In this document: one piece after another, positions 38,001 through 56,453 of the stretch
Position numbering within the stretch: the stretch's first letter is position 1
How the letters are laid out: each line of letters starts with the position of its first letter
IMG/VR virus record: IMGVR_UViG_3300015608_004663
Source of the DNA: an uncultured virus (IMG/VR IMGVR_UViG_3300015608_004663)
Taxonomy: Duplodnaviria; Heunggongvirae; Uroviricota; Caudoviricetes
DNA: 64,000 nucleotides
Direction: 5' to 3' (one strand)
Translations under genes and position numbers: made by a program
Notes under the pieces: model-generated
Seen by the model: only the letters and a program-made list of their open reading frames with translations
What the model was told of the DNA's origin: nothing
Databases searched by the model: none

Positions 38001-38805
38001 TATTTTTTATGATGTTCCAAGTCAGCACACAGCGTCAATTTCTGCGTACTCAGACAATGTTTGGTCGCGCGCATTTCCATTTGAGCCGCGATACTCTTCA
38101 TTGCAGCGTCGCACAGACATGACAAAATTTTACAATTGTGATCTTCGATTAGTCAATGGAACAGTTGTTGCAATTGGATCACTAACGAACGATGGCGTCG
38201 CGAACAATCTAGTTGTTGTGAGAATGCAAGTCAAGCAGGGAATAACTGCAGCAATGTCTCCGCGGCCGCCAAACGAATATTTCTTCTATCCACTAGATGC
38301 TGTGGGAAATAATCCACCAAAAGTAATCACAGGACCAGTCACAAACACGTTTCAAACAAAGAACGATTTAATCAAAACACTGTATGGTATTGGTGATCTA
38401 AACGCAGTCTTAATCACTGGTTCATCTGGTCCGATGGGCTCAACAAACGCACCAGATTACGCAAGCTACAGTTTTGATCCACCGTCATCAAGAGAATATT
38501 CGTTTGGAACTAAACCGATCATCAGAGGATGGAAGTATGGTTTAGTGAATGGCGTGCGAACTACGACAAAAGCTATTTGGCGCAGAGATCACTACGGTCA
38601 GTTTAGAGACATGCTTGAACAGAGAATTAACACCAAGTTTGCGAACGACGCTGAAGGCTCTGTTTCTGAAGCTGCTGTAAGAGTATCTTTTCTTGATGCT
38701 TACACAAGAGACGTTGTAAACGCTTCAGATACAGATTCATCCAACCTTAGCTATGAGGTAACTTCCTCACTCCCGTATTTCGACGGGGATATCCGCAATC
38801 GATGA
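35041..38805 (+). CDS. Large Ser/Gly/Thr-rich virion protein
   Basis: 1254 aa; C-terminal RGWKYG...RRDHYGQFRDMLEQR...SSLPYFDG; last gene of the structural operon. Confidence 0.75.
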   Translation: MYENFSLIRDESSVRSGLLEIPFSKFVRIISGNVTSSSPGVAAMINLGIEFPGENGLQYSRAAVNHAGALVLLDPSDPSTTATDAFAAVCTNLSNNASIRSSFSSASLLLCPWWDPQQSTVASDVFELAQSYSNPLIFRLVTYSAWRPEDFSAGAYRLDSSGGVLYANLVTTDRGRCSVVRWCTRETSHDTARVLRYEAALYENGVIEFRYSTPAQVQPASVLPATGSAVVGVFFPSGSNRFRDMSVIDGRGMYELGGFVYTASYSNNGAPYCLSNNGHDGWPGGITGRATYSFIPQTNLRKILPRVDIKRNSNASFSSVYNDRRTILATTGSLDAPIGMSFLDVQGDGSQIHDLFRKQTHCIRSRSMNDLDFFSLPTKAIAPYCDNDIDDSSLSYASASSINVAVPNNTVRLSSRHSVKLSFKISREAKFLPNIATGLVFDPDSESFVLAGTDRLIIANTEARRAAEDSFGFNAVGHYVASGTYSVSSQSQSTLSPGLYDQSNNLSRADMLSAFYNASITLSDGAISFKGFNTRIVYSPIRTKIKYPFAVEAIELELPIKANNAWFQDLTTVKANFPNETYSGWNLGGPGITCIVLVDRGSSLKRFREIIATGSITHITDYQTVSSSITALSLYSALVNPVGFKTCGGDPAAVVNAVSGPYTGSVKLFMPVSTAIGSYMALTGTAPTSTFLNTLPLEQTLPKSDLAYGWLNAIPVHLTPFGRSRDGVSVSARSFNAREAGASSDIKQRFYLTGSALSALSSSLNGYTSVTYVGSGFDVSSAPSPYILLPNDSIRIMIAKSRSAWTGSGINDVSFSNGLDTQAEPIFGIALGEMRLNLIGRYVKQGELTEIHESEQDAHSVIGDDPVVDQLEFYTLGERYGTYVDDYITGSYIVQTPTGFSNNGIRGRVFSVANASSSAQYDTSLYSIAKTPPSWLAGSTHINFAVCEDERYYDSMLPPIDDIARKNGAAVLYQGSSYYVVNRPTAVIFYDVPSQHTASISAYSDNVWSRAFPFEPRYSSLQRRTDMTKFYNCDLRLVNGTVVAIGSLTNDGVANNLVVVRMQVKQGITAAMSPRPPNEYFFYPLDAVGNNPPKVITGPVTNTFQTKNDLIKTLYGIGDLNAVLITGSSGPMGSTNAPDYASYSFDPPSSREYSFGTKPIIRGWKYGLVNGVRTTTKAIWRRDHYGQFRDMLEQRINTKFANDAEGSVSEAAVRVSFLDAYTRDVVNASDTDSSNLSYEVTSSLPYFDGDIRNR

Positions 38806-39235
38806 TGTTAAGCGTTCCAAATTGATTCGGACCGATCGTGTAAATCACGCGCTTGATCCCGTAATTGGTGATAGCGCGCATGCAAGTTTTGCACGGCATA
38901 GCTAGCGCTATCTGTCCACGAGACTGCGTGATCTTGTTATCTTTTGTGATTCTTGCTACAAACATCTTGCAGCCACGCAGATCCGTTTTCTGACGAGCTC
39001 TGAAGATCGCGCCAACTTCAGCGTGAATGCTGAAGCAATCAGGATTATCAGTCATGATTGATGTGTACGCATTCATCTTTGGAACGTTGCTTGACCATGA
39101 GATGATTGAGCCGCCTTTCACTATCACAGCAACAAGGTGCGCAGTAAGTTTATCACAAGTTGTTGTGACTCGCTTCACAGCGCTCACGAGATGCGGCGGA
39201 AAGTCATTGCACTGCTCAGATATGATATCCACCAA
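38747..39235 (-). CDS. Cytidine/dCMP deaminase-family protein
   Basis: HAEVGAI...PCKTC zinc-binding signature. Confidence 0.9.
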   Translation of the reverse strand: MVDIISEQCNDFPPHLVSAVKRVTTTCDKLTAHLVAVIVKGGSIISWSSNVPKMNAYTSIMTDNPDCFSIHAEVGAIFRARQKTDLRGCKMFVARITKDNKITQSRGQIALAMPCKTCMRAITNYGIKRVIYTIGPNQFGTLNIIDCGYPRRNTGVRKLPHS

Positions 39236-40403
39236 CAGCCTCCAAAACGGTGTTCATAAAGCGCTTGGACACACACGGTGCAGTGATTCTGCCTCGCAGC
39301 CAAAGCATAACTGACACGTTGCGATCTATGATCGCGAAAGCACCAGAAGCAAGCAGTTTATTTTTCAGCAAAGATATTTCTCTCGCCATAACTTTGCGAT
39401 CTTTCGCGAGCTCTCTGATGCGCTTCAATTCTTCTTCAGAAGAAGAGCACCAGCTTTTGATTCTGCTTTGCAGATCTAGCACAGCCGCTCTCACTGAATC
39501 TGTCAGAAACGCGCTAGCGACGACGTCATCAAATGTATCACTCATCACAACTGAGAGCGCAGTGCGCGGTGAGCGATCGAGAAGCTGCTGCGCCGAGTTT
39601 GCTACGCAGAAACGTGGACACTTGACTTTTACGCGATTGAAAGTATCACCGTTGATCTCAACAACTACAAAACCTTCACAGTCACTCGGATCAGCGTCTT
39701 TAATTGATTCAGCTAGAGACTCTAGAGAAACAAGTGTTTTATCTGTGTAAGCGTGCTTCACATCAAGCGCTTGCGCTACTGATCTTGGATCAGATTCTGA
39801 TCCTGTCAAAGTATCAATCACACCAAGCAACACAAGTTCATCTGCTTGATGATTCACAACGTGACGATTCTTGGGTCCAATCAATTCGAACACATGCGTT
39901 TTTGTAACATCTAAAATAGATGTGTCTTTATCTTGCCACAGTCTCCAGAACATCTGAGCGTACGTTTTTCCATCACGGTGCTCAACGTCTGCATCTGGTA
40001 CAGATCTAGTTGCAATGTGCCAAACATCATTAAAATGATACATGATTATCATTGTACCATCATACTTTGTTTGAATGATCGCGCGACTAAGATCAGTTAT
40101 CTTCGCTCCGTTTTGACCATGATTGAAGAATCGCTTAAATGGTCTTGCCACGATTCGCGGATCGCAGATCACATCATTTTCATTGATCTGTGAATCAGAT
40201 GCAATCACAATGCCTCGACAGAGTGATGCAATATCATCGCAGGGATCTGCTTCTGCTTGATCGTATGATAGTGAAACTCTGAGCTTATCACAAGACACTC
40301 TTGCATAGATACCTCGTGATTGCAGATTGATCAGCGGCTGAGATCGCACTAAATCTAGTAAACTTGCTGCAGTTTTGTCATGCATGTGATCCACACAGTC
40401 CAT
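39216..40403 (-). CDS. RNA ligase, T4 Rnl1/RnlA-like
   Basis: CRG, PFKRFFN, KYDGT (motif I), FEL, EGFVV, RVKVK. Confidence 0.9.
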   Translation of the reverse strand: MDCVDHMHDKTAASLLDLVRSQPLINLQSRGIYARVSCDKLRVSLSYDQAEADPCDDIASLCRGIVIASDSQINENDVICDPRIVARPFKRFFNHGQNGAKITDLSRAIIQTKYDGTMIIMYHFNDVWHIATRSVPDADVEHRDGKTYAQMFWRLWQDKDTSILDVTKTHVFELIGPKNRHVVNHQADELVLLGVIDTLTGSESDPRSVAQALDVKHAYTDKTLVSLESLAESIKDADPSDCEGFVVVEINGDTFNRVKVKCPRFCVANSAQQLLDRSPRTALSVVMSDTFDDVVASAFLTDSVRAAVLDLQSRIKSWCSSSEEELKRIRELAKDRKVMAREISLLKNKLLASGAFAIIDRNVSVMLWLRGRITAPCVSKRFMNTVLEAVGGYHI

Positions 40404-40576
40404 CCAAACTTTCCGTTTGCTAGCAACAACGCTACGCGATCTTGCTCAAGAGCGATCACGATCGCAAGAAAATGATCTTTGTAAACAGATTTATGTCCGT
40501 TAAAATTGACATCATCTGATAAGCAAAAATCTTTTACTGTGACGATGCACGCACCTGGATGCAGTGCTTGATACAT
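40355..40576 (-). CDS. Small PG-motif (SH3/KOW-like) hypothetical protein
   Basis: MYQALHPGACIV...FLAIVIAL...VALLL. Confidence 0.55.
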   Translation of the reverse strand: MYQALHPGACIVTVKDFCLSDDVNFNGHKSVYKDHFLAIVIALEQDRVALLLANGKFGWTVWITCMTKLQQVY

Positions 40577-40608
40577 ACTAAACTCTGCTTAAGATTAAGT
40601 GCACAAAA

Positions 40609-41013
40609 TCATTTTAGAGTGTTTGGGATCTTCAGCTTGAGATTTTTCCCAGTGCGCTTGTAATTCGTTCCGGCGCAGCGCTGGTGATATTCGTCATACA
40701 GACCGACATTTCCATCGTCTTTGATCCACTGGATCTTGAACGTAGCTGTGTACAACCAGAATCCACTGTCTGTTGACAGCTCTACGAGAACTGTGTCTCC
40801 GGGTTTAAGCAGAAAAACTCCTGATGGAGTGACTGCATCGCGAAGATGATCGATGCTAAATTTCTGTCGCTCTTTTTTGGGTTTAAAAAGCTCTTGAATC
40901 TGCTCTTGCTCTGTCAAAACATTTTCTTCTAAAGAAGACATCTTATTCCTTGCAGAGTTGTTCACAGTTGCTAATGAAATACTTGCAGAGCGCGCCTGTG
41001 CGAGATTTTTCAA
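40609..41013 (-). CDS. Hypothetical protein with KOW/SH3-like segment (start probably the internal MSSLEE)
   Basis: LKPGDTVLVE motif. Confidence 0.6.
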   Translation of the reverse strand: MKNLAQARSASISLATVNNSARNKMSSLEENVLTEQEQIQELFKPKKERQKFSIDHLRDAVTPSGVFLLKPGDTVLVELSTDSGFWLYTATFKIQWIKDDGNVGLYDEYHQRCAGTNYKRTGKNLKLKIPNTLK

Positions 41014-41257
41014 TGCAGTTTAAGCACTCTTCTCGCGAACTCTCTCTACCGCATTCACTAGATGCCATCGTGCAATTGTAAACAACGCACATGAGCACGA
41101 TGTTTGCGCAATTTTGTGAAACATCGCTTGCAGAAGCATCAAGCTTATCAGCCATATCATGATTTGCGTGAGCGTCAACTCTTTGAGAGTGCTCAGAGTT
41201 GTACCCAGTGCAGCCAAACCACAGCGCGAAAACAATACCAAATAAATTACGCATCAA
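40943..41257 (-). CDS. Cys-rich putative lipoprotein
   Basis: Signal-like N-terminus ending LWFGC; several further Cys. Confidence 0.55.
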   Translation of the reverse strand: MMRNLFGIVFALWFGCTGYNSEHSQRVDAHANHDMADKLDASASDVSQNCANIVLMCVVYNCTMASSECGRESSREECLNCIEKSRTGALCKYFISNCEQLCKE

Positions 41258-41769
41258 CCCTCTAGATTTTGTTTGACGTATTCATACAAAGCGATGTGTG
41301 CAGCCATCGCAGTATTCAAGCAGAACCCGACGCCCGGCATCGGAATGTAAATAAGATCGTCTGCAGCATTACATATACCTTCAGGTACGCCTGAAGTTTC
41401 GTGTCCAACAATGATGACAGTGTCGCACATCATGTCAAATTTGTAATTGCAGATCGATTTTGCATTTTCGCGCAGCTCGACTGCTATCAGCTTTGAATCT
41501 TTGACGCTGTTCAAAAAATCATTCGGCGTTTTGTGCTGAATGATCTCTACATAATCTGATGTTGAGCCGCTTCGACTGCGCAGTTCATGGCGCGGCGGCA
41601 CATGACCAATTACGTGAACAGATTTCGCTCCAAAGCACGCAGCGGATCTGACAATCACGCCAACGTTAATGTCCAGCTGAAATTCAACTGATGCGATGCT
41701 ACACCGAAGTTTTTCTGCTTTGTTGCTTTTGTGATTGTAGCGCTGAATTCTTGTTTCAGATCGAGTCAT
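41254..41769 (-). CDS. SpoU/TrmH-family RNA 2'-O-methyltransferase
   Basis: NVGVIVRSAACFG, VGHETSGVP, IPMPG...CLNTAMA. Confidence 0.92.
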   Translation of the reverse strand: MTRSETRIQRYNHKSNKAEKLRCSIASVEFQLDINVGVIVRSAACFGAKSVHVIGHVPPRHELRSRSGSTSDYVEIIQHKTPNDFLNSVKDSKLIAVELRENAKSICNYKFDMMCDTVIIVGHETSGVPEGICNAADDLIYIPMPGVGFCLNTAMAAHIALYEYVKQNLEG

Positions 41770-42851
41770 GCATCACTATTAGTGTTAGGGTTTGTTTGCG
41801 ACGTTTTTCCAAAAGCTAGCATAAACACAGCTGCGATGAAAAACAAAATCCCTAAAAATGCAGGCAGCTCAATATTTCTGCCCAAGATCTTTTGCGCAAG
41901 CGCGCCAGCAAACACGCTACCAGATCTGTTGATCGGCACTGAGTACGTTTGCTCTGTTTTAGACATCATGATCATCGGACCGAAGATGCCCGTTGTCTGA
42001 GCTAGCACACCAACAAAAAAAGCTTTTATTTGCGTGTCTCGTGGCAAAACTGAAAAATTTGTTGCATCAGTTACGCAAAGACTTGCAGTGCTAACAAATA
42101 GCATCAAGAAGCAGCACACAAGCTGCGAAGCGCACAAAAATTTAAAGTTTTCTTGATTTGCTCCGTAATGTTTCATGTTGACAACGTACGCACCAGCGTA
42201 CATCGCTAATATAACAAGCCAACCAACACCAGACGGCACTCCAGCCCCCAGGATGCTGCACAGAACAGCTACAAAAGCTAAGCAGAATCCAATCCATGTG
42301 TTAGTTTTGACAGTCCTGTTTTGTATCTTATCACTAATTGGCGCTATCATTAGCACGCTGCCTCTCGTCAGGAGCAACATCGTCACGAGAGCAGCTCCAG
42401 CGTACATGTAGCTAGCGCTTGTTGTCAAACTGATCATCGCGCTAGCGCAAGCCATACCGACATTCGCTGAAGTGAATTTCAGCTCTCGCCAGAAAGAAAT
42501 TATGTCTGATGCATTCTTTGATTTGATGAATCGATAGATTCCGATAGCAAAAAATTCAAAAATCGTTACAGCGCAAGCCGCTGCTGACGTTAAGATCATT
42601 ATTTGCCAGATCTGAGCTTTTGTTCCAACTTGCTTTGACAAGATTGCGTAAGGAATGTACGCTACAATGTACAGAACAAATGATATCCACAGCCATGGAT
42701 TTTTAACGATGCGATCTGTACACCTACTCAAAAATTGCTTAGATGCATTCATAGAATCTGAGAAATGTGTAGCTGCATTAATCTTTAGCATGTTAACTTC
42801 TTTCATGTTAACTAACAAGATTTGAAGTCTTGCGCTTGTGAAATATTTCAC
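41766..42851 (-). CDS. Polytopic membrane protein, DMT/EamA-like
   Basis: About 10 hydrophobic segments; LLTRGSVLMIAP, SVPINRSGSVFAG. Confidence 0.7.
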   Translation of the reverse strand: MKYFTSARLQILLVNMKEVNMLKINAATHFSDSMNASKQFLSRCTDRIVKNPWLWISFVLYIVAYIPYAILSKQVGTKAQIWQIMILTSAAACAVTIFEFFAIGIYRFIKSKNASDIISFWRELKFTSANVGMACASAMISLTTSASYMYAGAALVTMLLLTRGSVLMIAPISDKIQNRTVKTNTWIGFCLAFVAVLCSILGAGVPSGVGWLVILAMYAGAYVVNMKHYGANQENFKFLCASQLVCCFLMLFVSTASLCVTDATNFSVLPRDTQIKAFFVGVLAQTTGIFGPMIMMSKTEQTYSVPINRSGSVFAGALAQKILGRNIELPAFLGILFFIAAVFMLAFGKTSQTNPNTNSDA

Positions 42852-42872
42852 AAGCGCAAACGCAGAAGATCG

Positions 42873-44066
42873 TCACTTTCTTTCAACGATACCAGAGCTT
42901 GCTTTGTGCATGATGACAGCGCCAATCAAAGATAGCGCAATCAGAGATGCGAACAAACCGCTATAACCTAGCGGCGCTTTAAGCGCACCAACAGCGCCAG
43001 AAGCAAAGTGTCCGATTGCGTTAGAACCAAACCAAAATCCCATGTGCTGCGCTTGCTTGTGCTGCGGCGCAGCGTGACTGATAAGTGTCATGATTGCTGG
43101 TGAGATCAGCAATTCTGCTACAGTCATAGCTAGATAAATTGCAAAAATCGGTAGCATGCTACCTTGCCCGGGCTGACAGTTGATAACGCTAACAAGCACG
43201 CTTAGAAATCCCAGCGCGATGATCAGCATCCCAGTCACAAGCTGCTGCTTAAATGAGAACCCGCGCTTAGAGAAAAATGCTGGCACTCTTTCTCCAAGCA
43301 TGATCACAAAAACAGAATTTAGCGCAGAGAATACTGTCGCCGGGATCACGTATGATAACACTTGTCTGTCAATGATATCTCGCGCGTAAAATGTCAAGCT
43401 ACCATTAAACTGATTAAAAACACACCAGAAAATTGCAGCCGCAGCATACACTAAATAGAGTGTTTTTTCAGAAGCTGAAAGCTTCACATCTACGTGCTTC
43501 GCTGCGCTTTGCTGAATTGTAGTTACTGCAGTTTGAATCAATTTTGATCTTGCGATGAAAGTTGTTGCAATCGTAGCTAGACCAGCTGTCGCAAACATCG
43601 CTGGCCATCCAAAACTATGTTTTGCGATCTCTGCGACGACTGGAGCTAGCATCGCTCCGATGTTTGTCGCCATGTATAGTTTGTAAAACGCGGCTGTTTT
43701 GTTCGTCTGATCAGCGACAGCGCCGCAAGTTGCCGTTGCGGATGGCTTATACAAGCCGTTTCCAACCATCAAAAACAGCACAGCAACAAGCAGCGGTGCG
43801 CTGATTGAGAATGAAAAGTAACTCATAGTTAGCGCCGCTGCGCCAACGACAAGCGCTTTTCTTTGACCGATCTTATCAGATAAGATACCACCGCCGAGAG
43901 GACCGAGGTAAGCAGCACCGCTGATCATACCCGTCAAAAACTGAGCTGTTTCTACAGAATATCCTAATTTTTCATTAAGATAAATCGCGATGAGATCTAA
44001 AACCATGTAGAAACTCATTCGCTCAGCGCCGTGACCAACAAGCAGTGCTGAAAGTGCTTTATTCAT
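42873..44066 (-). CDS. Proton-dependent oligopeptide transporter (POT/PTR, MFS)
   Basis: AERMSFY, GGILSDKIG, GNGLYKP, YMATNIGAMLAP, AELLISP. Confidence 0.9.
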   Translation of the reverse strand: MNKALSALLVGHGAERMSFYMVLDLIAIYLNEKLGYSVETAQFLTGMISGAAYLGPLGGGILSDKIGQRKALVVGAAALTMSYFSFSISAPLLVAVLFLMVGNGLYKPSATATCGAVADQTNKTAAFYKLYMATNIGAMLAPVVAEIAKHSFGWPAMFATAGLATIATTFIARSKLIQTAVTTIQQSAAKHVDVKLSASEKTLYLVYAAAAIFWCVFNQFNGSLTFYARDIIDRQVLSYVIPATVFSALNSVFVIMLGERVPAFFSKRGFSFKQQLVTGMLIIALGFLSVLVSVINCQPGQGSMLPIFAIYLAMTVAELLISPAIMTLISHAAPQHKQAQHMGFWFGSNAIGHFASGAVGALKAPLGYSGLFASLIALSLIGAVIMHKASSGIVERK

Positions 44067-44309
44067 TTGATAGTTCTCCCAAGCGTCTAGATCATTTGTC
44101 TTAATTGTAATCAGACACTACTTGTGTCTGTATTTGCACAATTTGTTTTGCTTGTCTTTTACGAAGAATCGCGTCTCTAGTTAAACACATCTCACAAGTG
44201 CAGCGAATCAGCTGAGCTGAGAGAAGAAGCTCATCTTGACAGATGTGAACTCCGCTGATCAAGGCTATTGAATTGTTCCGACGTACAGAAATAGTAACAT
44301 TTGAATCAC

Positions 44310-44693
44310 TCAGAATAGCAATTCTGCTTCAGAATCATTGATCTCGATCTGTGAAGATGCATCAGTGATTCTAGCTAAAACCGCAAGATCTCGTAAAGAT
44401 TTAAGTTTTTGCAGTTTTTCAGCGCTTTCATGCACAGCGCGCCAGTATTTCTCAACAAGATCTTCATCTGCAGTTTTGTTGCGAAGTGCATCTAGAGCTT
44501 GCGCTTCTGTGAGCTCGACTGATTTGTGAATTAAAAATATCGCAGTTTTAGCGCGTTTGATCACCAGATCAATGATCGGCTGCACCTGTTTGTTTTGCGA
44601 TTCTAACAACAGATTAATTTGTTGATTGATCTTTGATAGCAGCACATAAGAACTGATCATCGCGACAGCCATTATTATTTCAATTCCTTTCAA
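44310..44693 (-). CDS. Hypothetical helical protein
   Basis: 127-aa ORF; start uncertain. Confidence 0.55.
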   Translation of the reverse strand: MKGIEIIMAVAMISSYVLLSKINQQINLLLESQNKQVQPIIDLVIKRAKTAIFLIHKSVELTEAQALDALRNKTADEDLVEKYWRAVHESAEKLQKLKSLRDLAVLARITDASSQIEINDSEAELLF

Positions 44694-44758
44694 TCACTCG
44701 CTGCAGCGAGTGATAAACTTTTCGCTTCAAGCGTTTCATCATTGTCTTTGATGCTATC

Positions 44759-45715
44759 TCATTTTCTGCTCAGAAGAAATTTTTCACTGTGATATTTCAG
44801 TATCACTCTCCCAATTCCTTTAGCAAATCTGTCTACCACTGGTTTGACAACGAAACCCTCTTTTATGTTGTGCCCAAGAGAAGATTGACCATTTGCTAGA
44901 GTCAGCAACTGCTTTGACCACGGTCCTCTGTGTAATAGAGTTGCAGCAGTTAATTTTAGCTCTGAAATAAATTTTTCAAATTCTTCATCTGACAGATACG
45001 ACATTGTCTTAGTGTTCTGCGCTTCAAACAAAACAAGCCCGGGATTTGTTTGTGTGAAACCGTATTGAAGATCTTTGCAACCGATCGCTTCTCCAAACAC
45101 AACGATGTCTTGATGCTGCTTCATCTTTGAAGCAAGATCATATTTTTTGCGAATTGCGTTAAAAATTGAGTCTTCAGACTCATGTATTATCGCTCTTCTA
45201 GATGCCACGATCAGCTGATCTGTGAATGTGAATCTGATGTTGTTTCCATGAAACTTTTCTCTTATGACAACTTCTTCTTGATCTTGCAAGACATTTGGCC
45301 ACGTTCTTAAATTGTCTATGTTGACATAGCGTGGTAGCATCTCTATGTCTGCTGGAGTTTCTCGCTCGTCATCGCTGTCTTCTGGTGGCTCCCAGCGTTT
45401 GATGTTAAGCGCCTCTGTTACATCATCACCCTCAAGCATGCCGGGTGAAGCTTTTACAAGGGCGCCCATTGAGAACACGCCGCGAATCTTTCTCGGTCTG
45501 ATTCGACCGTCTGATCCGAAAAGATGAGCAAATCTTGCATCGTTCTTAGGAAGAATTGCAGTGATTGGAATGTACACTGCTAAATCACCCTCAGAAACTT
45601 CTCCGTTTTTAACGATGACTGTGTAATCAAACACTTTTGTGATAAAAAGCGTATCTGCATCATGGTGCTTGTGCAAAGCACCGATCTTCACAACTGTAGC
45701 TTTGAACGTAGACAT
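44759..45715 (-). CDS. RNA ligase, DRB0094-like (N-terminal OB/tRNA-binding-like domain plus Rnl2-type ligase)
   Basis: H.DADTL...GDLAVYIP...KIRGVFSMG; EKFHGNN; FGE; KEGFVVKP; ILK. Confidence 0.9.
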   Translation of the reverse strand: MSTFKATVVKIGALHKHHDADTLFITKVFDYTVIVKNGEVSEGDLAVYIPITAILPKNDARFAHLFGSDGRIRPRKIRGVFSMGALVKASPGMLEGDDVTEALNIKRWEPPEDSDDERETPADIEMLPRYVNIDNLRTWPNVLQDQEEVVIREKFHGNNIRFTFTDQLIVASRRAIIHESEDSIFNAIRKKYDLASKMKQHQDIVVFGEAIGCKDLQYGFTQTNPGLVLFEAQNTKTMSYLSDEEFEKFISELKLTAATLLHRGPWSKQLLTLANGQSSLGHNIKEGFVVKPVVDRFAKGIGRVILKYHSEKFLLSRK

Positions 45716-45783
45716 GAACTATCTTTGCAAGATAATAAAATAATCAAACTAAGTTTGCATTCTGCTAAGTGATATTTTAGATC

Positions 45784-46125
45784 ATGAAAAAGCAAACAAA
45801 AATTATTGCTACGCTGTGCTGCGCTCTGCTGGGTGCGTGCGTAAGTCTGTCTACGCTAACGCATGATTTTGCTGATAGATCAGCAGTTGCTAGACAGCTA
45901 GATGATGGCAAATCTGAATTGACGTTGAAGTGTCAGCGCACAAGTCTTGAAGGTGTTCAGCTTGCAAAGCGCGATGCAGTAGCAGCTTTATTAACAAAGA
46001 AGCGCGCTGATGAATTAAGAGCTGCTGTTTATGAAGCGTGCAAACATACGGAGATGCAACATGACATGGTGGACAAATCTGTTAGAGATGGTGGCGTCAG
46101 CGATAACAAAGTTGACGCAAACTGA
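45784..46125 (+). CDS. Putative lipoprotein
   Basis: MKKQTKIIATLCCALLGAC signal with lipobox. Confidence 0.7.
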   Translation: MKKQTKIIATLCCALLGACVSLSTLTHDFADRSAVARQLDDGKSELTLKCQRTSLEGVQLAKRDAVAALLTKKRADELRAAVYEACKHTEMQHDMVDKSVRDGGVSDNKVDAN

Positions 46126-46213
46126 GCGAAAGAAAGCAGACAAAGACCAGCAAGATATCATTGATGATATCAAAGCAGCAGAAGCTGTTAGAAAAAAAAC
46201 AAATTCTAACTGA
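46061..46213 (+). CDS. Small amphipathic protein overlapping the lipoprotein gene
   Basis: MTWWTNLLEMVASAITKL...; ggag upstream. Confidence 0.45.
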   Translation: MTWWTNLLEMVASAITKLTQTERKKADKDQQDIIDDIKAAEAVRKKTNSN

Positions 46214-47495
46214 GATCTTTGTTAGCTTTTGACACAGCTGCGACAAGCGCGCACAAAGCAACTACGCACAGTCCCAGCTTGTATGATGATATTGACCACA
46301 TTCCAATCTCAGCTCTTGCAAACCAGATCGCTATCACAAGCATCGCGATTGGAGCAAGCACTACATAAGCGAGTCCAAAAACTCCAAACGGAACGCGAAA
46401 GTGAGATCCTGTGTTTGGTTGCATCACTCTGATCGTGATCAAAGATATTGCTTGCAGCGCGTACACGACTCCGTAAAGAATAACATCAATCTCGATCAAG
46501 CGCTTCAAGCCCACGCTCATGCTCAGAGCGTACACAGCGCAAGAAACAATGATCGTCATGTACGGAACTCCGCGCGAGTTAACAGCACCAAACATTCGCG
46601 GCAAGATTTTATCTTCTGCTAGTGATAAAGGTATCTGAGAGTACGATGTAACAAGAGAGCTAAACATCCAGATACCGCACAGCATCCCACCGATCGCTGT
46701 CCAGGCCCTTAAGTACGAGCCACCAATAGCTTCTCCTATGTCAACCCAAGAGCCAATCACCATTGATTCTGTGTGATATTTTGATGCAACAAAGATAGCT
46801 GCAGCGTAGCAGCAAGTCGTGATAAGCACAGCTAAGAATATGCCGCGCGGATACGTTCTCTGCGGTTGATCAACTTCTTTAGCAAGAGTTGATGCATTGT
46901 CCCAGCCGAGGTAGTTCCACAAACACATCAAAATTGCTACTTCTTTAGATCCGTCATTGTTAACTGAAGATGTTACAGTTGGCATGCCGACAGCGCCAAG
47001 AAACATTATGATAAAGGGCGCTAGCAACGCTAGCATGATCAGCGTCGATCCGCGGCCGACGAATTTGATTCCAAACATGCACGCGACCGCGCAGACAGCG
47101 ATCATGATCGATCCAGCAAACCACGCAGGAGAGAAAAGATTCATGTCTGCACTCAGCGCTGGAAATATCTTGGCAAGATATGTCACGAACAGCGTTGGGT
47201 AGATCGCCATGTCAAAGAAGCTCATAGCCAGCGCAGACCAAGCTAGCATTGAAGCCATGAAAGTTCCATTAGATCTTTTGATCCAATCGTAATATCCGCG
47301 GCTGGCAGGGTGGGCTGCTGCCATCTCACCAACAAGCATCGCTATTGGTAGCGCCCACACAAAAGGCACGATCAGTATGACGATCAGAGATAACTTCCAA
47401 CCAAGAGCTGCGATTGTTTCTTCAAGAGCGTACGGTCCACCAGAAACAATGAAGAATGTAGTTGCTGCTAGTGATAGCGGTGTTAACTTGTTCAT
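46206..47495 (-). CDS. APC-family amino acid/polyamine permease
   Basis: FFIVSGGPYALEE, WNYLGWDNASTLAKEVDQPQRTYP, about 12 TM segments. Confidence 0.92.
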   Translation of the reverse strand: MNKLTPLSLAATTFFIVSGGPYALEETIAALGWKLSLIVILIVPFVWALPIAMLVGEMAAAHPASRGYYDWIKRSNGTFMASMLAWSALAMSFFDMAIYPTLFVTYLAKIFPALSADMNLFSPAWFAGSIMIAVCAVACMFGIKFVGRGSTLIMLALLAPFIIMFLGAVGMPTVTSSVNNDGSKEVAILMCLWNYLGWDNASTLAKEVDQPQRTYPRGIFLAVLITTCCYAAAIFVASKYHTESMVIGSWVDIGEAIGGSYLRAWTAIGGMLCGIWMFSSLVTSYSQIPLSLAEDKILPRMFGAVNSRGVPYMTIIVSCAVYALSMSVGLKRLIEIDVILYGVVYALQAISLITIRVMQPNTGSHFRVPFGVFGLAYVVLAPIAMLVIAIWFARAEIGMWSISSYKLGLCVVALCALVAAVSKANKDLS

Positions 47496-47651
47496 CGCGC
47501 GACGCTCCAGTAGATCTAGTGATCTGAGTGATTCACATCTTAGATTGATCGAGATGAGTGCTAAGAATCATCTGCAGCTAAGATCGCTAGCTAGCTTAGA
47601 GCCGCAGGTGTCTGCGCGGGCAAGCTTTAGCGGTGCAAGATCTGCAAATAT

Positions 47652-48332
47652 TTAAGCGTATCGCAAGAAGAAATCATTTGTTTCTGAAGCAGAAACTTGC
47701 TCAAGAACGCACAAAACATCTTCAAACGAATCAAGATCAACTGATTCATTGTGAATCATACCTGACTCAAAATCAGGCTCTTTCGCAGTCAACCTCCATA
47801 GCAGCGTTGGTGAATCGCGAGTCTGACCGATCTGCTCAACGATAACGCAAGTATCACCAATTGATACGTGAGATTCGTGCTGCAAGCACATGTTCAGATC
47901 ACCAACTCTAACTGCTTTGCCAGCGTCAGCGCTCTCTTCTGGCACGCGCACCGTGTACATCTCTAATCGAGATCTTGTCATGCTATCAATGATAGCATTT
48001 GGGCGCCACTCAACAAGATCTCGCACGATCTGCATCGCTGCAGACGTTCCCACCATCTCAACTGAGAGAAGCGGCCGATCACAAAAAGATGCAGCGATTG
48101 AAAATCCTCGCACAAACTCACCGCGATCATTCTTGCCCAGAACAGAAAAAATGTAAATCAAGTCAAGCGCTGATTGCTGCTTTGGCTTCAGAACAACAAC
48201 GGGTACTGATCCGCTCTCTAAAGATAGAAGCTCCACATCAAGATCTGAGCGAAGATTTCTTGCACACGTAGCAATGATTGACAGAGTTTCTTGTGGGTCA
48301 GCCACTGGCATGCGTAATTCTAGCGTTTGCAT
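47652..48332 (-). CDS. Hypothetical protein
   Basis: 226-aa ORF with gagg RBS. Confidence 0.7.
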   Translation of the reverse strand: MQTLELRMPVADPQETLSIIATCARNLRSDLDVELLSLESGSVPVVVLKPKQQSALDLIYIFSVLGKNDRGEFVRGFSIAASFCDRPLLSVEMVGTSAAMQIVRDLVEWRPNAIIDSMTRSRLEMYTVRVPEESADAGKAVRVGDLNMCLQHESHVSIGDTCVIVEQIGQTRDSPTLLWRLTAKEPDFESGMIHNESVDLDSFEDVLCVLEQVSASETNDFFLRYA

Positions 48333-48372
48333 CTATTTCCTCTAACACTCACGATGAGTGATTTCATCGTGT

Positions 48373-49317
48373 TCAGCACTTGCAAATCTGCACTTCATCA
48401 CAGAGCGATCTGATCGCTTTCTCTACTGCGCTCTCATACACGTCAAACTCAGCAGATCTTGGCAAATCTCCAGTTTCTACTAGCTGCTCGATCTGATTCT
48501 TGACGGTTCCAATATCTCGACCAGATAGATTCCATTTATCTATCAACCAATTACCGAATCCTTTCTTGAGGAGAGGTGGCATCGCGTCTTCTGCAATGAC
48601 GCGCTCCATCTTCGCAAGAAGAGCGTCTGCATTTTTGTGCGCAGCGCGAATCTTAGCTGGATTTCTTGTAGTGAGATCTGATCTTGATAGAATCATCAGA
48701 TCTGATGCGCGAGGACCACATTCTTTAACGAATCGTCTCACAGCGCTGTCTGACCACTCACTGGAGTGCTCTGCTGGGCGCAAGTGGTGAGCAACTAGCC
48801 AAGAGACATCATCAATGAGACTCTGCGAGACCTTTGCATCGCGCAAGACAGCCTCAGTTATGCGAGCTCCGACTATTGGATGATTGTAAAACGTTGGTCC
48901 TTTTCCCTCAATGAGCTTGAAGGTGTCTGGCTTGCCAATATCGTGAAGCAGTGCTGCTAGACGCAAATTAAGTGAATTTGGCACGCCTGCGATAACAGCA
49001 AGCGTGTGCTCCCACACGTCTTTGTGGCGCCTGTTTGGTTCTTGCGATAGCTTGATCAGACTATCTATTGTGGGAATGATCAGCGATAGTCCTCCGCAAG
49101 CATAGAAGACGCGCAAACCAAGCGCTGGGTTTTTCTCTGTTAGAAGAACGCAGAGAGCGTCGAGCGCTTCTTTTGTCGTTAGCGACCGCTCGTTTCTGAA
49201 CGCTGAGCAAGCTCTGATCGATTCAGGCACGCCCGCGCTTGTTAGCGTCAGTGACGTAGATGCAACCCAGAGCGCTGCAGCGACAGCGTCTTTTTGATTT
49301 GATAGTGTGTGCGTCAT
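48373..49317 (-). CDS. HD-domain phosphohydrolase derived from the C-terminal half of CCA-adding enzymes (no nucleotidyltransferase head)
   Basis: Q...HKDVWEHTL, LRLAALLHDIGKP.T, FYNHPIVGA, HHLRP, WSDSAVRR, SRSD; no GG-x-VRD/DxD motif. Confidence 0.85.
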   Translation of the reverse strand: MTHTLSNQKDAVAAALWVASTSLTLTSAGVPESIRACSAFRNERSLTTKEALDALCVLLTEKNPALGLRVFYACGGLSLIIPTIDSLIKLSQEPNRRHKDVWEHTLAVIAGVPNSLNLRLAALLHDIGKPDTFKLIEGKGPTFYNHPIVGARITEAVLRDAKVSQSLIDDVSWLVAHHLRPAEHSSEWSDSAVRRFVKECGPRASDLMILSRSDLTTRNPAKIRAAHKNADALLAKMERVIAEDAMPPLLKKGFGNWLIDKWNLSGRDIGTVKNQIEQLVETGDLPRSAEFDVYESAVEKAIRSLCDEVQICKC

Positions 49318-49574
49318 GTCTGTTCGCGCAAAACGGCCCAGTCTTCTTTAAGAATTTTTGTTTTTTCTTGCAATAGCTTTGCAGTGCCGTCACTGAACAT
49401 GACAAGCAACAGCATGTTATCGCCTAAGTAGCGCTCACACAAAGGCGAAATAACAAAAGCTAGCGTGATCACTACGAGTCTTTTCTTTCGCTTGCTAGCT
49501 TCAGCTTCTTTTTGCTTACGCCTAGATGGAATGTGACACAAGCAAGATCCCGGTAATACATCACCTTCTATCAT
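49314..49574 (-). CDS. Small PG-motif hypothetical protein
   Basis: MIEGDVLPGSCL...LVVITLAF...LLLVMFSDG; promoter directly upstream. Confidence 0.6.
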   Translation of the reverse strand: MIEGDVLPGSCLCHIPSRRKQKEAEASKRKKRLVVITLAFVISPLCERYLGDNMLLLVMFSDGTAKLLQEKTKILKEDWAVLREQT

Positions 49575-49580
49575 AGAAGT

Positions 49581-49610
49581 ATTGTACCTTGTGAAGGTGT
49601 CGCGTTGCAC
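49581..49610 (-). promoter_or_regulatory. Putative early promoter GTGCAA-N18-TACAAT
   Basis: The -10 box lies 6 nt from the ATG at 49574; same layout at 50971 and 54513. Confidence 0.65.
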
Positions 49611-49986
49611 TGTTTCGATTTAAAAAATGTTGATCTTGCAAAAGATTCAAGCGTGAATTTGTGCCTTTGACGCAAACAAAACTGTGCAAAATACGTTAGA
49701 ATCATGTTTGCGCACAAAGACCAGTGCCGAGTCTGCAGCGTCAGCGCTCTACAAGATTGTGAGCGCAGCAATTCAAAGTAGGGTCAGCGCGTCAGATTTA
49801 ATAACACACTGCATGATCGCAGTGCACAGATTTGTGCACTGGGTTGAACGGTGTAATAATATGAACCATGAAAATCAAACACTTGATTGAAATTATTGAT
49901 GACGTGTTAACGCTGAAGCGCTTAGTGAAACAATCTACGATCTGTGCTTGCTGTTTTCTTGCAGCGCTGTGTATCATTAAAAACAA

Positions 49987-50472
49987 ATGAACATCTTTAT
50001 TTTAGATGAAGATCCCGCGATCGCAGCGCAATCGCTAGCAGATCAGCACATCAACAAAATGATAGTTGAGCACTGCCAGCTGCTTGCAACAGCTCATGAC
50101 AAAAGCATCTCACCGTACAAGCACACTCACATCAATCATCCGTGTGCAAAATGGGTAAGAAAATCTTTCGCAAACTATGTTTGGCTCGTTGAGTGCACGG
50201 GTGAGCTGCTGTGCGAGCGATCGCACAGGTGGCCAGATCGAAAAATTCATAAAACTGATGCTGTCTGGAGATGGTATGCTGAAAATGCGCATCTAGCCAA
50301 CTGTGAAATCATCTACCCGATGACACCGTTCGCTCAGGCGATGCCTGACATGTTCAAGGGAGATGATGCAGTCGCTGCTTACAGAGCGTACTACAAAGCA
50401 AGAAAGATGCTGCTTAGAAACAAACCAGCTGCTTGGACCAACAGAGACAAGCCAGCTTGGTTGCTTACGTGA
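49987..50472 (+). CDS. Pyrimidine dimer DNA glycosylase / endonuclease V-like
   Basis: MNIFILDEDP...DQHINKMIVEHCQLLATAH...YKHTHINHPCAKW...FAQAMP...AYRAYY. Confidence 0.88.
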   Translation: MNIFILDEDPAIAAQSLADQHINKMIVEHCQLLATAHDKSISPYKHTHINHPCAKWVRKSFANYVWLVECTGELLCERSHRWPDRKIHKTDAVWRWYAENAHLANCEIIYPMTPFAQAMPDMFKGDDAVAAYRAYYKARKMLLRNKPAAWTNRDKPAWLLT

Positions 50473-50479
50473 GCTCGCA

Positions 50480-50731
50480 TCACTGAGCGTGCGCCCAGCG
50501 CTCGCGCTTCTTTGGCAGATCACCAAAACACATCTTCACAAGCTTGATTCTAGCGTGAAGAATATCGTACCTGATATCGCGCGTTTCTACGCGACCGTCA
50601 TAACGCAGCAGCGTTAGCGTTAACGCTTCACAGCGAGCGCTCTTTCTTGTAACTGCAAGAATCATTGACAAGCAGATGTTGCTAAAATTTGCGTCTATCA
50701 CGACGCCTGGCATTGTGTATTCAGTTTGCAT
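50480..50731 (-). CDS. Small PG-motif hypothetical protein
   Basis: MQTEYTMPGVVID...MILAV...LLRYDGRV. Confidence 0.55.
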   Translation of the reverse strand: MQTEYTMPGVVIDANFSNICLSMILAVTRKSARCEALTLTLLRYDGRVETRDIRYDILHARIKLVKMCFGDLPKKRERWAHAQ

Positions 50732-50750
50732 TTTCAGCTTTCGATAGAAA

Positions 50751-50927
50751 TCACAAAGAGAAGTGAAGCAAGCTTAAAGAGCTTGCTGCTTGATGATCGC
50801 TGCAAGCTTTCGACATCTCTATGAGATTTGAGATCTGGTGCTTGATATCGCTGATAGGCACGCCGCTTCTGACGCTCCATTTTAGCAGCGCGTGTTTAAT
50901 ATCAACAATTGCTTCAACGTCTAGCAT
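50751..50927 (-). CDS. Hypothetical protein
   Basis: ATG at 50927 preceded by an aaggag RBS. Confidence 0.55.
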   Translation of the reverse strand: MLDVEAIVDIKHALLKWSVRSGVPISDIKHQISNLIEMSKACSDHQAASSLSLLHFSL

Positions 50928-50962
50928 GAAACGCTCCTTTTGTTTTAGATCTAAACTTTCTT

Positions 50963-51000
50963 GCAAAAAAGTGCACTTTTTTGCGCGGGCACATTAGATT
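50963..51000 (+). promoter_or_regulatory. Promoter of the RNase P RNA gene within a perfect 22-bp palindrome (possibly bidirectional)
   Basis: GCAAAAAA-GTGCAC-TTTTTTGC (50963-50984); GTGCAC-N18-TAGATT ends 7 nt before helix P1. Confidence 0.7.
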
Positions 51001-51007
51001 CAATGTA

Positions 51008-51377
51008 ATCGAGCTGCTCAGTCAATCGAGAGTCGCAGAGCTTGTGCAAAAAAGCAATCAGCTCTGAGGAAAGTCCGAGCTTCACAGAGCGTAGCGCTAG
51101 CTAACAGCTAGTCAGAGCAATCTGAAGAACGTGCAACAGAAAGCAAACAGCCGAAGTCTTCAAGACTGGCAATGGTGAAACGGTGCGGTAAGAGCGCACC
51201 ATGTCACTGGTGACAGTGACAGTTTGGTAACTCCGCTAGAAGCAAGATCGCGCAGAGAGTGATGATGCTGCTCGCGTAGCTCTCGGGTAGATCGCTAGAG
51301 CGATGCAGTGATGCATCGCCAAGACAAATGACTCTCTAACAACAGAACTCGGCTTATGATTGACTGAGCAGCTCGAT
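51008..51377 (+). ncRNA. rnpB: Ribonuclease P RNA, bacterial type A
   Basis: GAGGAAAGTCCGAGC (51066), GTGCAACAGAAAGCAAA, GGTGAAACGGTGCGGTAAGAGCGCACC, ACAGAACTCGGCTTAT; perfect 20-bp P1 (51008-51027/51358-51377); P2 GAGAGTC/GACTCTC; P8 CTAGC/GCTAG; P9, P14 and P18 hairpins with GNRA loops; GGT in L15. Confidence 0.97.
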
Positions 51378-51381
51378 CAGA

Positions 51382-52125
51382 TCAGCGAGCAAATGAATTT
51401 TTCATGATAGATCTTGAATCCCACCGCGATCCTGGCTGGAAGCTCTTTGAAACGATCTTGTATCGTGCGATAAGAGCATTTTCTCTGCAGAGCTTGATGT
51501 AAGCTCCCTCTCTCTGATCTATTGCAGAGTAAGCTGATTTTCCCTCTCGGTGTGAGATGACAATAGATTTAAACTGCTCTAAATTTGGGATCGTTTTCGT
51601 GCAGAGCAAGCCATGAACCACTGAAAACCCTGATTTTTGCAGGGCTTCTCTAGCAGAGATAGAATCAATGAAGTGGCGCTCAGACGGGATCCAAACATCA
51701 TACGCTAAAAACACATCTGGCAGCGCATTGTACTTGATAGAGTGACAAGCGAACAACCACTCTCCGTACACAACGACTCTTTCTCCTAAAAGCTGAGCGA
51801 GTGATTCAAACAGCGCTTTGCGCTGGTACATCCACGTCCATAAAGAAGAGAATTGCATCTTTGCAGGCGTCTTAGCGCTGAAGCTCTTTCTCAAGAAGTG
51901 ATTTCTGTTTCTTGCGATCGGTTGATCTTGCTCATCAAAAGCTACGCCAAGATTTGCACCGTCAACTTTCTCTTCGATCTGGAGAGAGTCGCAGCTAGAG
52001 AGCGCTTGCTTGATCTCATCTTCACTAGCGATCAGATCATCACGACTGGTGTTTGCTTCCCATGGAAGGTGCTTAGTGCGCGGGAAATCAAAGATCTCTA
52101 CTTTTGTCACAGCAGACATGATCAA
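51382..52125 (-). CDS. RNA ligase family protein (ATP-dependent, Rnl2-type nucleotidyltransferase domain)
   Basis: FPRTKHLPW, EEKVDGANLG, YGEWLFACHSIKY, FLAYDV, REGAYIK, RYKIV. Confidence 0.9.
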   Translation of the reverse strand: MIMSAVTKVEIFDFPRTKHLPWEANTSRDDLIASEDEIKQALSSCDSLQIEEKVDGANLGVAFDEQDQPIARNRNHFLRKSFSAKTPAKMQFSSLWTWMYQRKALFESLAQLLGERVVVYGEWLFACHSIKYNALPDVFLAYDVWIPSERHFIDSISAREALQKSGFSVVHGLLCTKTIPNLEQFKSIVISHREGKSAYSAIDQREGAYIKLCRENALIARYKIVSKSFQPGSRWDSRSIMKNSFAR

Positions 52126-52246
52126 ACCTCATTTCACACAAGCTCTCTTGATCATCAGCGCGAGAGCTCGATCGATCGCTTCTTTTATCAGATCTTTCAG
52201 ATGTTTCGCGCTCAGCACAGTGACTCCTTTTTGGCGCTCGCTCAGA

Positions 52247-55048: not shown

Positions 55049-55243
55049 ATGTCGACAAGACACAACTTCGAAGCCAATCTGCGGGCAGGAGATGTTTTTT
55101 ATGGATCTTGGAGTCGCGCCATCGACTTGATATTGATCATCTCAACTGGACGCCATAGCGCGCTCGTTGTGAAAGCAAACGCCGCGCAGTGTGACATCAA
55201 AGATGTCTACTATTCAGCTATTTACGTTAGAAAGAGACTGTAA
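55049..55243 (+). CDS. PGDL-family small protein
   Basis: LRAGDVFYG...LILIIS. Confidence 0.6.
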   Translation: MSTRHNFEANLRAGDVFYGSWSRAIDLILIISTGRHSALVVKANAAQCDIKDVYYSAIYVRKRL

Positions 55244-55464: not shown

Positions 55465-55574
55465 CAGGCTAGCGGAGACTTGCTACCTGACTGTTACGCA
55501 TCAGCGACAGATCTCTTGATAACTGCTGATCTCAGCGACGATTCACTTGCATCGCAAGGTCAATTCTGACGCAA

Positions 55575-56429: not shown

Positions 56430-56453
56430 CGTGTCATCCTTTCAGCGCAGAGA

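Follow-up and report, generated by a model that had tools for sequence, protein, structure and literature searches.

Gene content of the island

The window analysed in this study, a 64-kb stretch of tailed-phage DNA from an uncultured virus (IMG/VR record IMGVR_UViG_3300015608_004663; all positions given below are window coordinates), contains an island of RNA-related genes between 38747 and 52125. The island comprises three RNA ligases, an HD phosphohydrolase, an RNA 2′-O-methyltransferase of the SpoU/TrmH class, a zinc deaminase and an RNase P RNA. These seven features had been named in an earlier note, which read them as a toolkit for the maturation and repair of tRNA. The observation itself was confirmed, since the list of open reading frames (ORFs), the translations and profile searches recovered all seven with intact catalytic motifs and with all protein genes on the minus strand, and each gene could be assigned to a family. 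The note had not mentioned three transporter genes, a gene similar to T4 denV and approximately ten family-less ORFs that sit between the named genes.

To the left of the island, a plus-strand block (8.4-38.8 kb) encodes about a dozen glycosyltransferases and sugar-nucleotide enzymes, a PD-(D/E)XK nuclease, and baseplate and fibre proteins. Baseplate genes of the gp25-like and gp6-like types and giant fibre-like genes directly border on the island. From 38.7 kb the coding strand flips to minus, and the GC content climbs there from approximately 0.40 to 0.45-0.52. A megablast search with the island region against GenBank phages gave no match.

RNA ligases

The first ligase (39216..40403, minus strand) belongs to the Rnl1 family of ATP-dependent RNA ligases. 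It matched PF09511 (3.9e-13; 50.2 bits, cut-off 28.3), the T4 Rnl1 structure 2c5u (4e-7) and, over positions 33-350 of 377, phrog_562 (2.2e-35), which is annotated as 'RNA ligase and tail fiber protein attachment catalyst'. Its motifs are intact in the translation (KYDG as motif I, EGFVV and KVK). The similarity to the T4 enzyme is remote, as the score with the T4 RnlA equivalog model TIGR02308 was 43.3 bits compared to a cut-off of 242.25.

The second ligase (44759..45715, minus strand) is of the Rnl5 type and consists of an OB domain (PF21189, 9e-10, residues 6-85) followed by a nucleotidyltransferase (NTase) domain (PF09414, 1.3e-22, residues 147-308) with KFHG as motif I. Residues 11-311 align end to end with residues 13-339 of Naegleria NgrRnl (5cot, 1.4e-11), and the DRB0094 model TIGR02306 was matched at 1e-30 with 106.9 bits, which is under its cut-off of 151.15. 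As a single-protein query this ligase found no relative among viral contigs.

The third ligase, referred to as ligase 3 (51382..52125, minus strand), is a protein of 247 amino acids comprising only the NTase domain (PF09414, 1.5e-21). It possesses an N-terminal FPRTxHL element, motif I in the form EEKVDGA, and GEW, EG and K-x-V motifs. For this protein, 117 homologues were detected at E≤0.001 in phages, giant-virus bins, bacteria and eukaryotes, all of which share the N-terminal His, EEKxDG, GEW, EG and the motif V Lys; one of them is fused to P-loop kinase domains. By sequence, ligase 3 had no match in the PDB and none in NCBIfam at E≤0.01. Its AlphaFold model (pLDDT 87.3) was most similar to RNA ligases (TM approximately 0.57), with NgrRnl, T4 Rnl2, TbREL1, Rnl3 and Trl1 ranking ahead of DNA ligases. 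An assignment to Rnl3 itself (Pab1020/MthRnl) was rejected. TIGR01209 and PF18330 were not matched, the 247 residues hold PF09414 only, whereas Rnl3 proteins have approximately 380 residues with extra dimerisation and C-terminal domains, and in the fold search no Rnl3 structure was placed higher than rank 17, below NgrRnl and T4 Rnl2.

Thus, the claim of three unrelated ligases holds in so far as there are three ligases of three families. They are not unrelated, since a single covalent-nucleotidyltransferase superfamily includes all three and PF09414 is common to two, even though the Rnl5-type ligase and ligase 3 barely align with each other (BLASTP E 0.03).

HD protein, methyltransferase and deaminase

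The HD protein (48373..49317, minus strand) is an HDIG phosphohydrolase whose metal-binding set (H...HD...H...HH...D) is complete in the translation. It scored above the cut-offs of PF01966 (1.6e-11; 44.9 bits versus 22) and TIGR00277 (35.7 bits versus 27.6). The general description in the earlier note can be made more specific, since residues 51-250 match positions 210-415 of the 466 positions of TIGR02692, the actinobacterial CCA-adding enzyme (3.7e-39), and since further matches were obtained with NF008137 ('CCA addition/repair', 1.1e-8) and the A-adding enzyme of Aquifex (3wfo, 3e-13). Judged by these alignments, the protein corresponds to that half of a class II CCA/A-adding enzyme which comprises neck, body and HD domain, and is devoid of the nucleotidyltransferase head. 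No PolyA_pol head (PF01743) was found in the protein, in the three ORFs upstream of it (E≤5) or in the 155-kb fragment of a relative; without this domain, the protein cannot add CCA. A split CCA enzyme was also considered and discarded because the three small upstream ORFs did not reveal a PolyA_pol match at the same threshold. As a single-protein query, the HD protein found no relative among viral contigs.

The methyltransferase (41254..41769, minus strand, 171 amino acids) was named correctly as SpoU/TrmH (PF00588, 3.5e-25; 89.2 bits, cut-off 29.7). Its scores remained below the equivalog cut-offs for TrmH (3.3e-16), TrmL (1.9e-15) and likewise RlmB, and its matches in the PDB were AviRb, TrmH and TrmL. 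It matched no Hen1 family in the Pfam and NCBIfam scans, and we take SpoU methylases to represent the SPOUT fold class.

The deaminase gene (38747..39235, minus strand) shares 20 nt with the end of the Rnl1 gene and encodes a zinc deaminase of the CDA fold with the signature HAE...PCxxC. It matched PF00383 (2.3e-9) and phrog_174 'dCMP deaminase' (3.4e-17), with no match in the PDB by sequence. The presence of a deaminase was therefore confirmed, but its role as a tRNA tool was not: the protein looks like a nucleotide deaminase of the dCMP type, and no link to tRNA was seen here.

RNase P RNA

On the plus strand, the window encodes a class A bacterial RNase P RNA with an extended P1 (51011..51374). 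The Rfam match (RF00010, 51018-51371) covers model positions 1-367 and is thus full length, and its score of 277.3 bits is far above the gathering score of 100. Both P4 core sequences, GAGGAAAGUCCG and ACAGAACUCGGCUUA, are present, and P1 is lengthened by an invariant 11-bp stem (G51011-C51374). The RNA and ligase 3 are convergent, their ends lying tail to tail at a distance of 10 nt if the Rfam end is taken, or of 7 nt if the extended P1 is included, and not 5 nt as had been noted before.

Compared to the RNAs of two related metagenome contigs (L135 and L136, approximately 87% identity), 14 of the 110 predicted pairs were changed on both sides with pairing kept, in P1, P3 and several other helices. 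Four of the 110 pairs were broken, three of them within a hairpin affected by indels. Although the comparison comprises three sequences from two lineages, the 14 compensatory changes demonstrate that the RNA structure is maintained by selection.

A gene for an RnpA-type protein (PF00825) was not matched among the window ORFs scanned. Blastn with the RNA returned three matches only, of approximately 69% identity. A pattern scan of species genomes yielded at least 120 matches, and among the 120 loci compared, the closest sequences were of the Myxococcota type and approximately 70% identical, so that no donor can be named. Just upstream of the RNA, a scan for the sigma-70 consensus detected no promoter-like site; a candidate picked by eye (TTGCGC-17-TGTAAT) agrees with the consensus at only eight of 12 positions and is not claimed.

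Conservation and origin of the island

The two metagenome contigs L135 and L136 show the same gene order as the window: ligase 3, RNase P RNA, o83, DenV, o98, HD, o226, permease, o113, Rnl5, MFS and EamA. The comparison runs from ligase 3 to EamA, which is the edge of the sequence compared. Protein identity across the block amounts to 38-76%, with values of 62% for ligase 3, 74% for DenV, 38% for o98, 73% for the HD protein, 51% for o226, 72% for the permease, 74% each for the Rnl5-type ligase and the MFS transporter, and 72% for EamA. Both contigs possess an RNase P RNA (303 and 299 bits) that is likewise convergent with ligase 3, at a distance of approximately 200 nt. The left part of the island recurs in the IMG/VR contig L001, in which o134 (54%), Rnl1 (55%) and the adjacent deaminase (68%) are kept in order; this contig ends 316 nt further. 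A relative is labelled as provirus in IMG/VR and was trimmed just past Rnl1. The 155-kb fragment of a relative carries three tRNA genes, from which it follows that the lineage encodes tRNAs.

A protein identical to ligase 3 was found on 14 contigs, the longest comprising 190,941 bp, and DNA of the window recurs in wastewater metagenome runs from three studies. Contigs of an independent study span positions 50156-51375 (DenV to RNase P RNA) and 51322-51715 (RNase P RNA to ligase 3). A contig of 4.4 kb covers positions 47816-52220, although its run is a possible source of the window DNA. Because the junctions are bridged by contigs of the independent study and two other metagenome contigs show the same gene order, the island is not an assembly artefact.

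The sequence to the right of approximately 38.8 kb might also be a bacterial chromosome next to an integrated prophage, with the RNase P RNA being the rnpB of the host. The shift in GC content at this boundary, the transporters, SpoU and rnpB as typical cellular genes, and the provirus label of the relative fit this idea, and a real case of such a junction exists in L017, where an integrase, a tRNA-Leu gene and host genes surround rnpB. However, neither an integrase nor an att-like tRNA was found at the boundary of the window, and the 12 kb to the right of ligase 3 contain no ORF with a family recognisable in the Pfam scan, which is unlike a bacterial chromosome. The DNA upstream of ligase 3 in L135, which is not homologous to the window, is likewise without a recognisable family. 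The closest relatives of the amino-acid permease in species genomes are only 30-36% identical, the bacterial rnpB genes listed are no closer than approximately 70%, and a bacterial locus with three RNA ligases would be unusual. A host flank is therefore hardly credible.

RNase P RNA and RNA ligases in other phages

A motif scan of IMG/VR revealed 35 candidate loci for RNase P RNA, 12 of which had full flanks and were tested with Rfam. In all 12, an RNase P RNA matched the full class A model (156-316 bits). Nine of them were surrounded by dense arrays of tRNA genes (contigs of 23-463 kb), and one, L017, is the prophage-host junction mentioned above. Hence, rnpB is a recurrent gene of phages, and the window is atypical because tRNA genes are absent around its RNase P RNA. 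A full-text literature search found no paper describing a phage-encoded RNase P RNA, and the term 'RNase P' is absent from the main text of Al-Shayeb et al. 2020. Recurrent neighbours of the phage rnpB genes and tRNA arrays, within 6 kb (L009, L019, L026, L033 and L035), were NADAR, YAcAr/SLOG, Metallophos and NUDIX proteins and a protein with an RF-1 domain.

The tail-to-tail position of the RNase P RNA and ligase 3 raises the possibility that the two form a cut-and-join pair, an RNA-based counterpart of the association between HARP, an RNase P made of protein only, and the ligase Rnl3, in which, for example, a leader would be trimmed and the product ligated or circularised. The substrates might be tRNA-like, or the device might replace a host RNase P disabled during infection; the HD protein, SpoU and the amino-acid and peptide transporters would then belong to a wider island that keeps translation supplied. 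Both the window (7-10 nt) and the contigs L135 and L136 (approximately 200 nt) show this arrangement. In L020, an unrelated phage contig of 268 kb, the RNase P RNA is followed 416 nt further on by a different PF09414 ligase of 241 amino acids, which is unrelated to that of the window. A complete phage of 172 kb harbors within 4.4 kb an RNase P-like RNA (58.9 bits, sub-threshold), four tRNA genes and a ligase-3 homologue of 38% identity. Furthermore, passages of Seshadri and Gopalan (PMC12153264) describe HARP and Rnl3 as typically 'bidirectional' neighbours.

On the other hand, at ten other loci (L020 not included) a scan of 58 ORFs located no more than 6 kb from the RNase P RNA did not reveal a single ligase gene. 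These 58 were drawn from 90 ORFs of at least 170 amino acids, the remaining ones belonging to four contig-end loci (19 ORFs) or lying over tRNA or RNase P genes (13 ORFs). Among five RNase P-bearing records, PF09414 was matched above its cut-off in three and Rnl1 in one, and in four of them (all but G008) the PF09414 genes were at least 11 kb away from the RNase P RNA. The proximity was thus seen in three phage lineages and was missing in many. The spacing is not conserved, convergent genes share no transcript, and ligase 3 is not Rnl3, as it lacks a TIGR01209 match and Rnl3 folds ranked lower. Altogether, we consider a cut-and-join pair rather unlikely. If it existed, it would answer a question put in the same passages of PMC12153264, namely why a ribonucleoprotein RNase P has never been seen together with a ligase.

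The surroundings of ligase 3 relatives were also inspected. Among 60 viral loci with relatives of ligase 3 or other PF09414 proteins, the best 25 had no other island gene within 10 kb (tblastn), and 15 weaker loci belonging to other PF09414 subfamilies (L062-L089) had an Rnl1-like gene 1-4 kb from the PF09414 ligase. A relative of the HD protein near a PF09414 ligase was detected at a single locus of the 60, L087, which carries within 7 kb a stand-alone HD protein (32% identical to that of the window), Metallophos, PTH2, the PF09414 ligase and a protein with a PolyA_pol head; a KH protein is also present. At 77 of the 80 metagenome loci, the ligase was found without other island genes. Arrays of at least three tRNA genes lie within 10 kb of the ligase at seven of the 25 best loci (L037-L061). 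Proximity to tRNA genes was seen at 13 of the 60 viral loci and at six of the 31 metagenome loci of at least 8 kb, figures that have no matched background and are a hint only.

Matches to the RNase P RNA model that span its full length and score below the threshold (51-66 bits) occur in three of five huge-phage records (G002:C1:102379-102627; G005:C1:125196-125574; G006:C1:30108-30377). These may represent RNase P RNAs of phages in a reduced form.

Functional interpretation

The interpretation we favour, and regard as probable, is that of a conserved accessory island of a very large wastewater tailed phage, which provides a loose repertoire of RNA-maintenance activities that work independently and most plausibly serve tRNA, rather than one coupled pathway. 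The substrates of the enzymes, a counter-defence purpose and any cooperation between the genes are what we infer from the family assignments. The Rnl1-like ligase would reseal single-stranded loops that have been broken, in the way T4 Rnl1 acts on the anticodon loop of tRNA, and the ligase composed of OB and NTase domains would join nicks with 3′-OH and 5′-PO4 ends in duplex RNA like NgrRnl and DraRnl. Ligase 3 may serve a third class of ends or require a partner. The head-less HDIG protein could dock on the acceptor end of tRNA to strip 2′,3′-cyclic or 3′-phosphates, and SpoU would transfer a methyl group to the ribose 2′-O of tRNA or rRNA. The RNase P RNA, presumably with RnpA of the host, would cut 5′ leaders off phage or host pre-tRNAs. 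The combined effect would be a tRNA pool that stays usable under attack by host ribotoxins or under damage caused by infection.

A number of observations weigh against this view. ATP-dependent ligases need a 5′-phosphate, but neither a P-loop polynucleotide kinase nor a HAD-phosphatase family was found among the 56 window ORFs scanned against Pfam, and none of the 22 ORFs of the island region contains a Walker A motif. As no polynucleotide kinase was found in the 64 kb, breaks with a 5′-OH end could not be sealed by the genes visible here. A 2H phosphoesterase and RtcB were not found in the 64 kb either, and the window does not contain any tRNA gene. The island genes fall into at least four transcription units, split by transporters and plus-strand genes, and three transporter genes and a DNA-repair gene are interleaved with the RNA genes. 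The Rnl1 gene is convergent with the fibre-like genes and abuts them, and in T4, Rnl1 relatives catalyse the attachment of tail fibres as well. Moreover, the gene set is conserved only within the close lineage, and beyond it the parts mix and match. Five huge phages with the nearest ligase-3 homologues possess Rnl1 (one of five), SpoU (one of five), an HD relative (two of five) and a sub-threshold RNase P-like RNA (three of five), and in none of them was the full set present. A complete phage of 204 kb encodes a SpoU homologue of 47% identity and has neither a PF09414 ligase nor an RNase P RNA.

The same data bear on the pathway proposed in the earlier note, in which the HD protein heals the ends, the three ligases seal them, SpoU methylates the junction in the manner of Hen1 and RNase P re-matures the product. 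Every activity needed except the kinase is encoded within 13.4 kb and is kept together in close relatives, and SpoU, Rnl1 and the deaminase are part of a single tight minus-strand run with gaps of at most 32 nt or overlaps. However, in addition to the missing 5′-kinase, SpoU matched no Hen1 family and presumably has the SPOUT fold, its homologue in the 204-kb phage indicates that the methylase travels independently, and RNase P would find no 5′ leader to cut on a mature tRNA that has been repaired. Together with the sporadic co-occurrence in other huge phages, this makes an integrated pathway quite improbable. What stands of the note's interpretation, which is thereby partly supported, is a set of RNA enzymes, mostly tRNA-directed by their families, in a huge phage, which matches a published reading of such genes; what did not hold up is one system that heals, seals, protects and re-matures, given the lack of a kinase, the separate transcription units and a gene set that does not co-occur outside the close lineage. 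The co-occurrence in related huge phages that the note had called for was found in the blocks of L135/L136 and L001 and in none of the five other huge phages as a whole.

The genes interspersed in the island suggest yet another explanation, that of unrelated cargo in a permissive, host-like region. Three of them encode transporters on the minus strand: an EamA/DMT-like membrane transporter (41766..42851; PF00892, 4.3e-6, with 27.5 bits under the cut-off of 28.2), a transporter of the MFS/POT peptide:H+ symporter type (42873..44066; PF07690, 7.7e-28; TIGR00924, 3.6e-41, above cut-off) and an amino-acid permease of the APC family (46206..47495; PF13520, 8.1e-32). The EamA gene belongs to the same tight gene run as SpoU, and 4 nt at its stop are shared with the start of SpoU. 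Some DMT proteins carry S-adenosylmethionine. A fourth gene, on the plus strand, encodes a pyrimidine-dimer glycosylase similar to T4 endonuclease V, DenV (49987..50472; PF03013, 3.5e-5; phrog_624, 1.6e-49), which is a DNA-repair enzyme and stands outside any RNA function. In an island of unrelated cargo, Rnl1 would help to attach tail fibres, the deaminase and DenV would belong to DNA metabolism, SpoU would modify host rRNA or tRNA for translation, the RNase P RNA would process only the phage's own tRNAs, and the other ligases might act on unknown or DNA substrates. The interspersed transporters and glycosylase, the position of Rnl1 opposite the fibre-like genes together with the phrog_562 label, and the mix-and-match distribution are in line with this explanation, as is the trimming of the relative's 'provirus' past Rnl1, if the content beyond is host-like. 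By contrast, three ligase families, an HD scaffold that binds tRNA ends, an RNA methylase and an RNase P RNA within 13 kb are a strong thematic enrichment, and a similar theme appears again in L087. Unrelated cargo is therefore unlikely, and the loose repertoire remains the reading we prefer.

If the enzymes of this repertoire act on tRNA, the island would be among the broadest sets for RNA end joining seen at a single locus of a virus. It would also be a source of three divergent ligases, one from a small family without a solved structure. The RNase P RNA matters more, since it means that a phage keeps the universal tRNA-processing ribozyme under structural selection with no tRNA genes nearby. 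The three transporters, conserved at 72-74% in the two related contigs, are a separate oddity for a phage.

Relation to known systems

Combinations of RNA ligases and end-healing enzymes as a counter-defence of jumbo phages are already published. The main text of Iyer, Anantharaman, Krishnan, Burroughs and Aravind (Viruses 2021, PMC7824862) describes large phages that combine Rnl1, Rnl2-type and RtcB ligases with phosphoesterases, CCA-adding enzymes and tRNAs, interprets this equipment as a non-redundant answer to attacks of the host on tRNA, and mentions XacN1 with three Rnl2 paralogues. The window likewise mixes several ligase families with an RNA-end enzyme, but differs from the repertoires in that text by the lack of a visible kinase partner, by an HD protein that is a head-less fragment of a CCA enzyme, and by a full-size RNase P RNA. 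The main text of PMC7824862 contains neither 'RNase P' nor 'transporter', and 'SpoU' occurs there only inside 'Spounavirinae'. The window is thus a richer version of the RNA-repair gene set known for giant phages, with a single pathway not proven. More unusual is that a phage encodes an RNase P RNA at a distance from any tRNA gene and tail to tail with an RNA ligase.

The window shares with phage T4 an Rnl1-family ligase in which the motif I Lys, EG and K-x-K are kept. In T4, Pnkp and Rnl1 repair tRNA-Lys cut by PrrC. The similarity to T4 Rnl1 is remote, as said above, and a Pnkp (kinase-phosphatase) was not found in the 64 kb. In the Pnkp/Hen1 system, a 2′-O-methyl mark protects the repaired junction from re-cleavage, the mark being set by Hen1, a Rossmann-fold methyltransferase acting with the ligase domain of Pnkp. 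The role proposed for SpoU has the concept of a protective 2′-O-methyl group in common with this system. However, the methylase of the window is presumably of the SPOUT class, there is no adjacent Pnkp, and a homologue occurs without a PF09414 ligase.

The HD domain of the CCA addition/repair protein of E. coli has 2′,3′-cyclic phosphodiesterase, 2′-nucleotidase and phosphatase activities. The HD protein of the window shares the HDIG motif set with this multifunctional enzyme (NF008137) and is homologous to the region behind its head, but the PolyA_pol head is missing from the protein and from the neighbouring ORFs.

Phage RNase P RNAs in tRNA arrays (IMG/VR loci L009-L035) represent the same full-model class A RNA on huge phage contigs. 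They differ from the RNA of the window, which has a ligase as neighbour and none of the surrounding tRNA genes that characterise nine of the 12 loci.

For the HARP-Rnl3 pair, passages of Seshadri and Gopalan (mBio 2025, PMC12153264) report a protein-only RNase P beside a ligase, usually in opposite orientation, and raise the question of why no ligase is seen alongside RNase P in its RNA form. The window, too, pairs an RNase P gene with an ATP-dependent RNA ligase of the same superfamily in opposite orientation. According to these passages, HARP-Rnl3 consists of a PIN-domain protein and a dimeric Rnl3 in extremophile cells, whereas the window combines a catalytic RNA with an NTase-only ligase of monomer size in a phage. 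It thus offers a natural RNA-form RNase P beside a ligase and is relevant to the open question posed by the HARP-Rnl3 pair.

Further features of the window

Three of the family-less ORFs of the island adjoin the genes discussed above, all on the minus strand. The ORF o134 (134 amino acids, 40609..41013) lies between SpoU and Rnl1 and has no match in Pfam, PHROG or NCBIfam. The ORF o226 (226 amino acids, 47652..48332) is located 40 nt downstream of the HD gene; it has no family match and no usable Atlas match, and its structural neighbours all had TM values below 0.5 by query. The stop of o98 (98 amino acids, 49314..49610) overlaps the start of the HD gene by 4 nt.

Immediately upstream of ligase 3, two paralogous family-less ORFs (52247-52840 and 53093-53764) are 35% identical over their first 72 residues; this pair is missing from the relative L135. 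Rfam detected nothing at E≤0.1 over 52-64 kb, a region with dispersed repeats in which a GCAGATCA-like word is repeated. Positions 55063-59062 comprise approximately 4 kb without an ORF of at least 90 amino acids, with dense minus-strand ORFs of 60-87 amino acids and a GC content of approximately 0.52. At the other end of the window, upstream of the baseplate genes, the region 8389-24334 encodes GT2 and GT4 glycosyltransferases, enzymes of the GDP-mannose dehydratase/epimerase type, a UDP-glucose dehydrogenase-like protein and a carbamoyltransferase. Finally, a near-perfect palindrome of 129 nt was identified at 60754-60882, the two 64-nt arms of which are 97% complementary and separated by a spacer of 1 nt.

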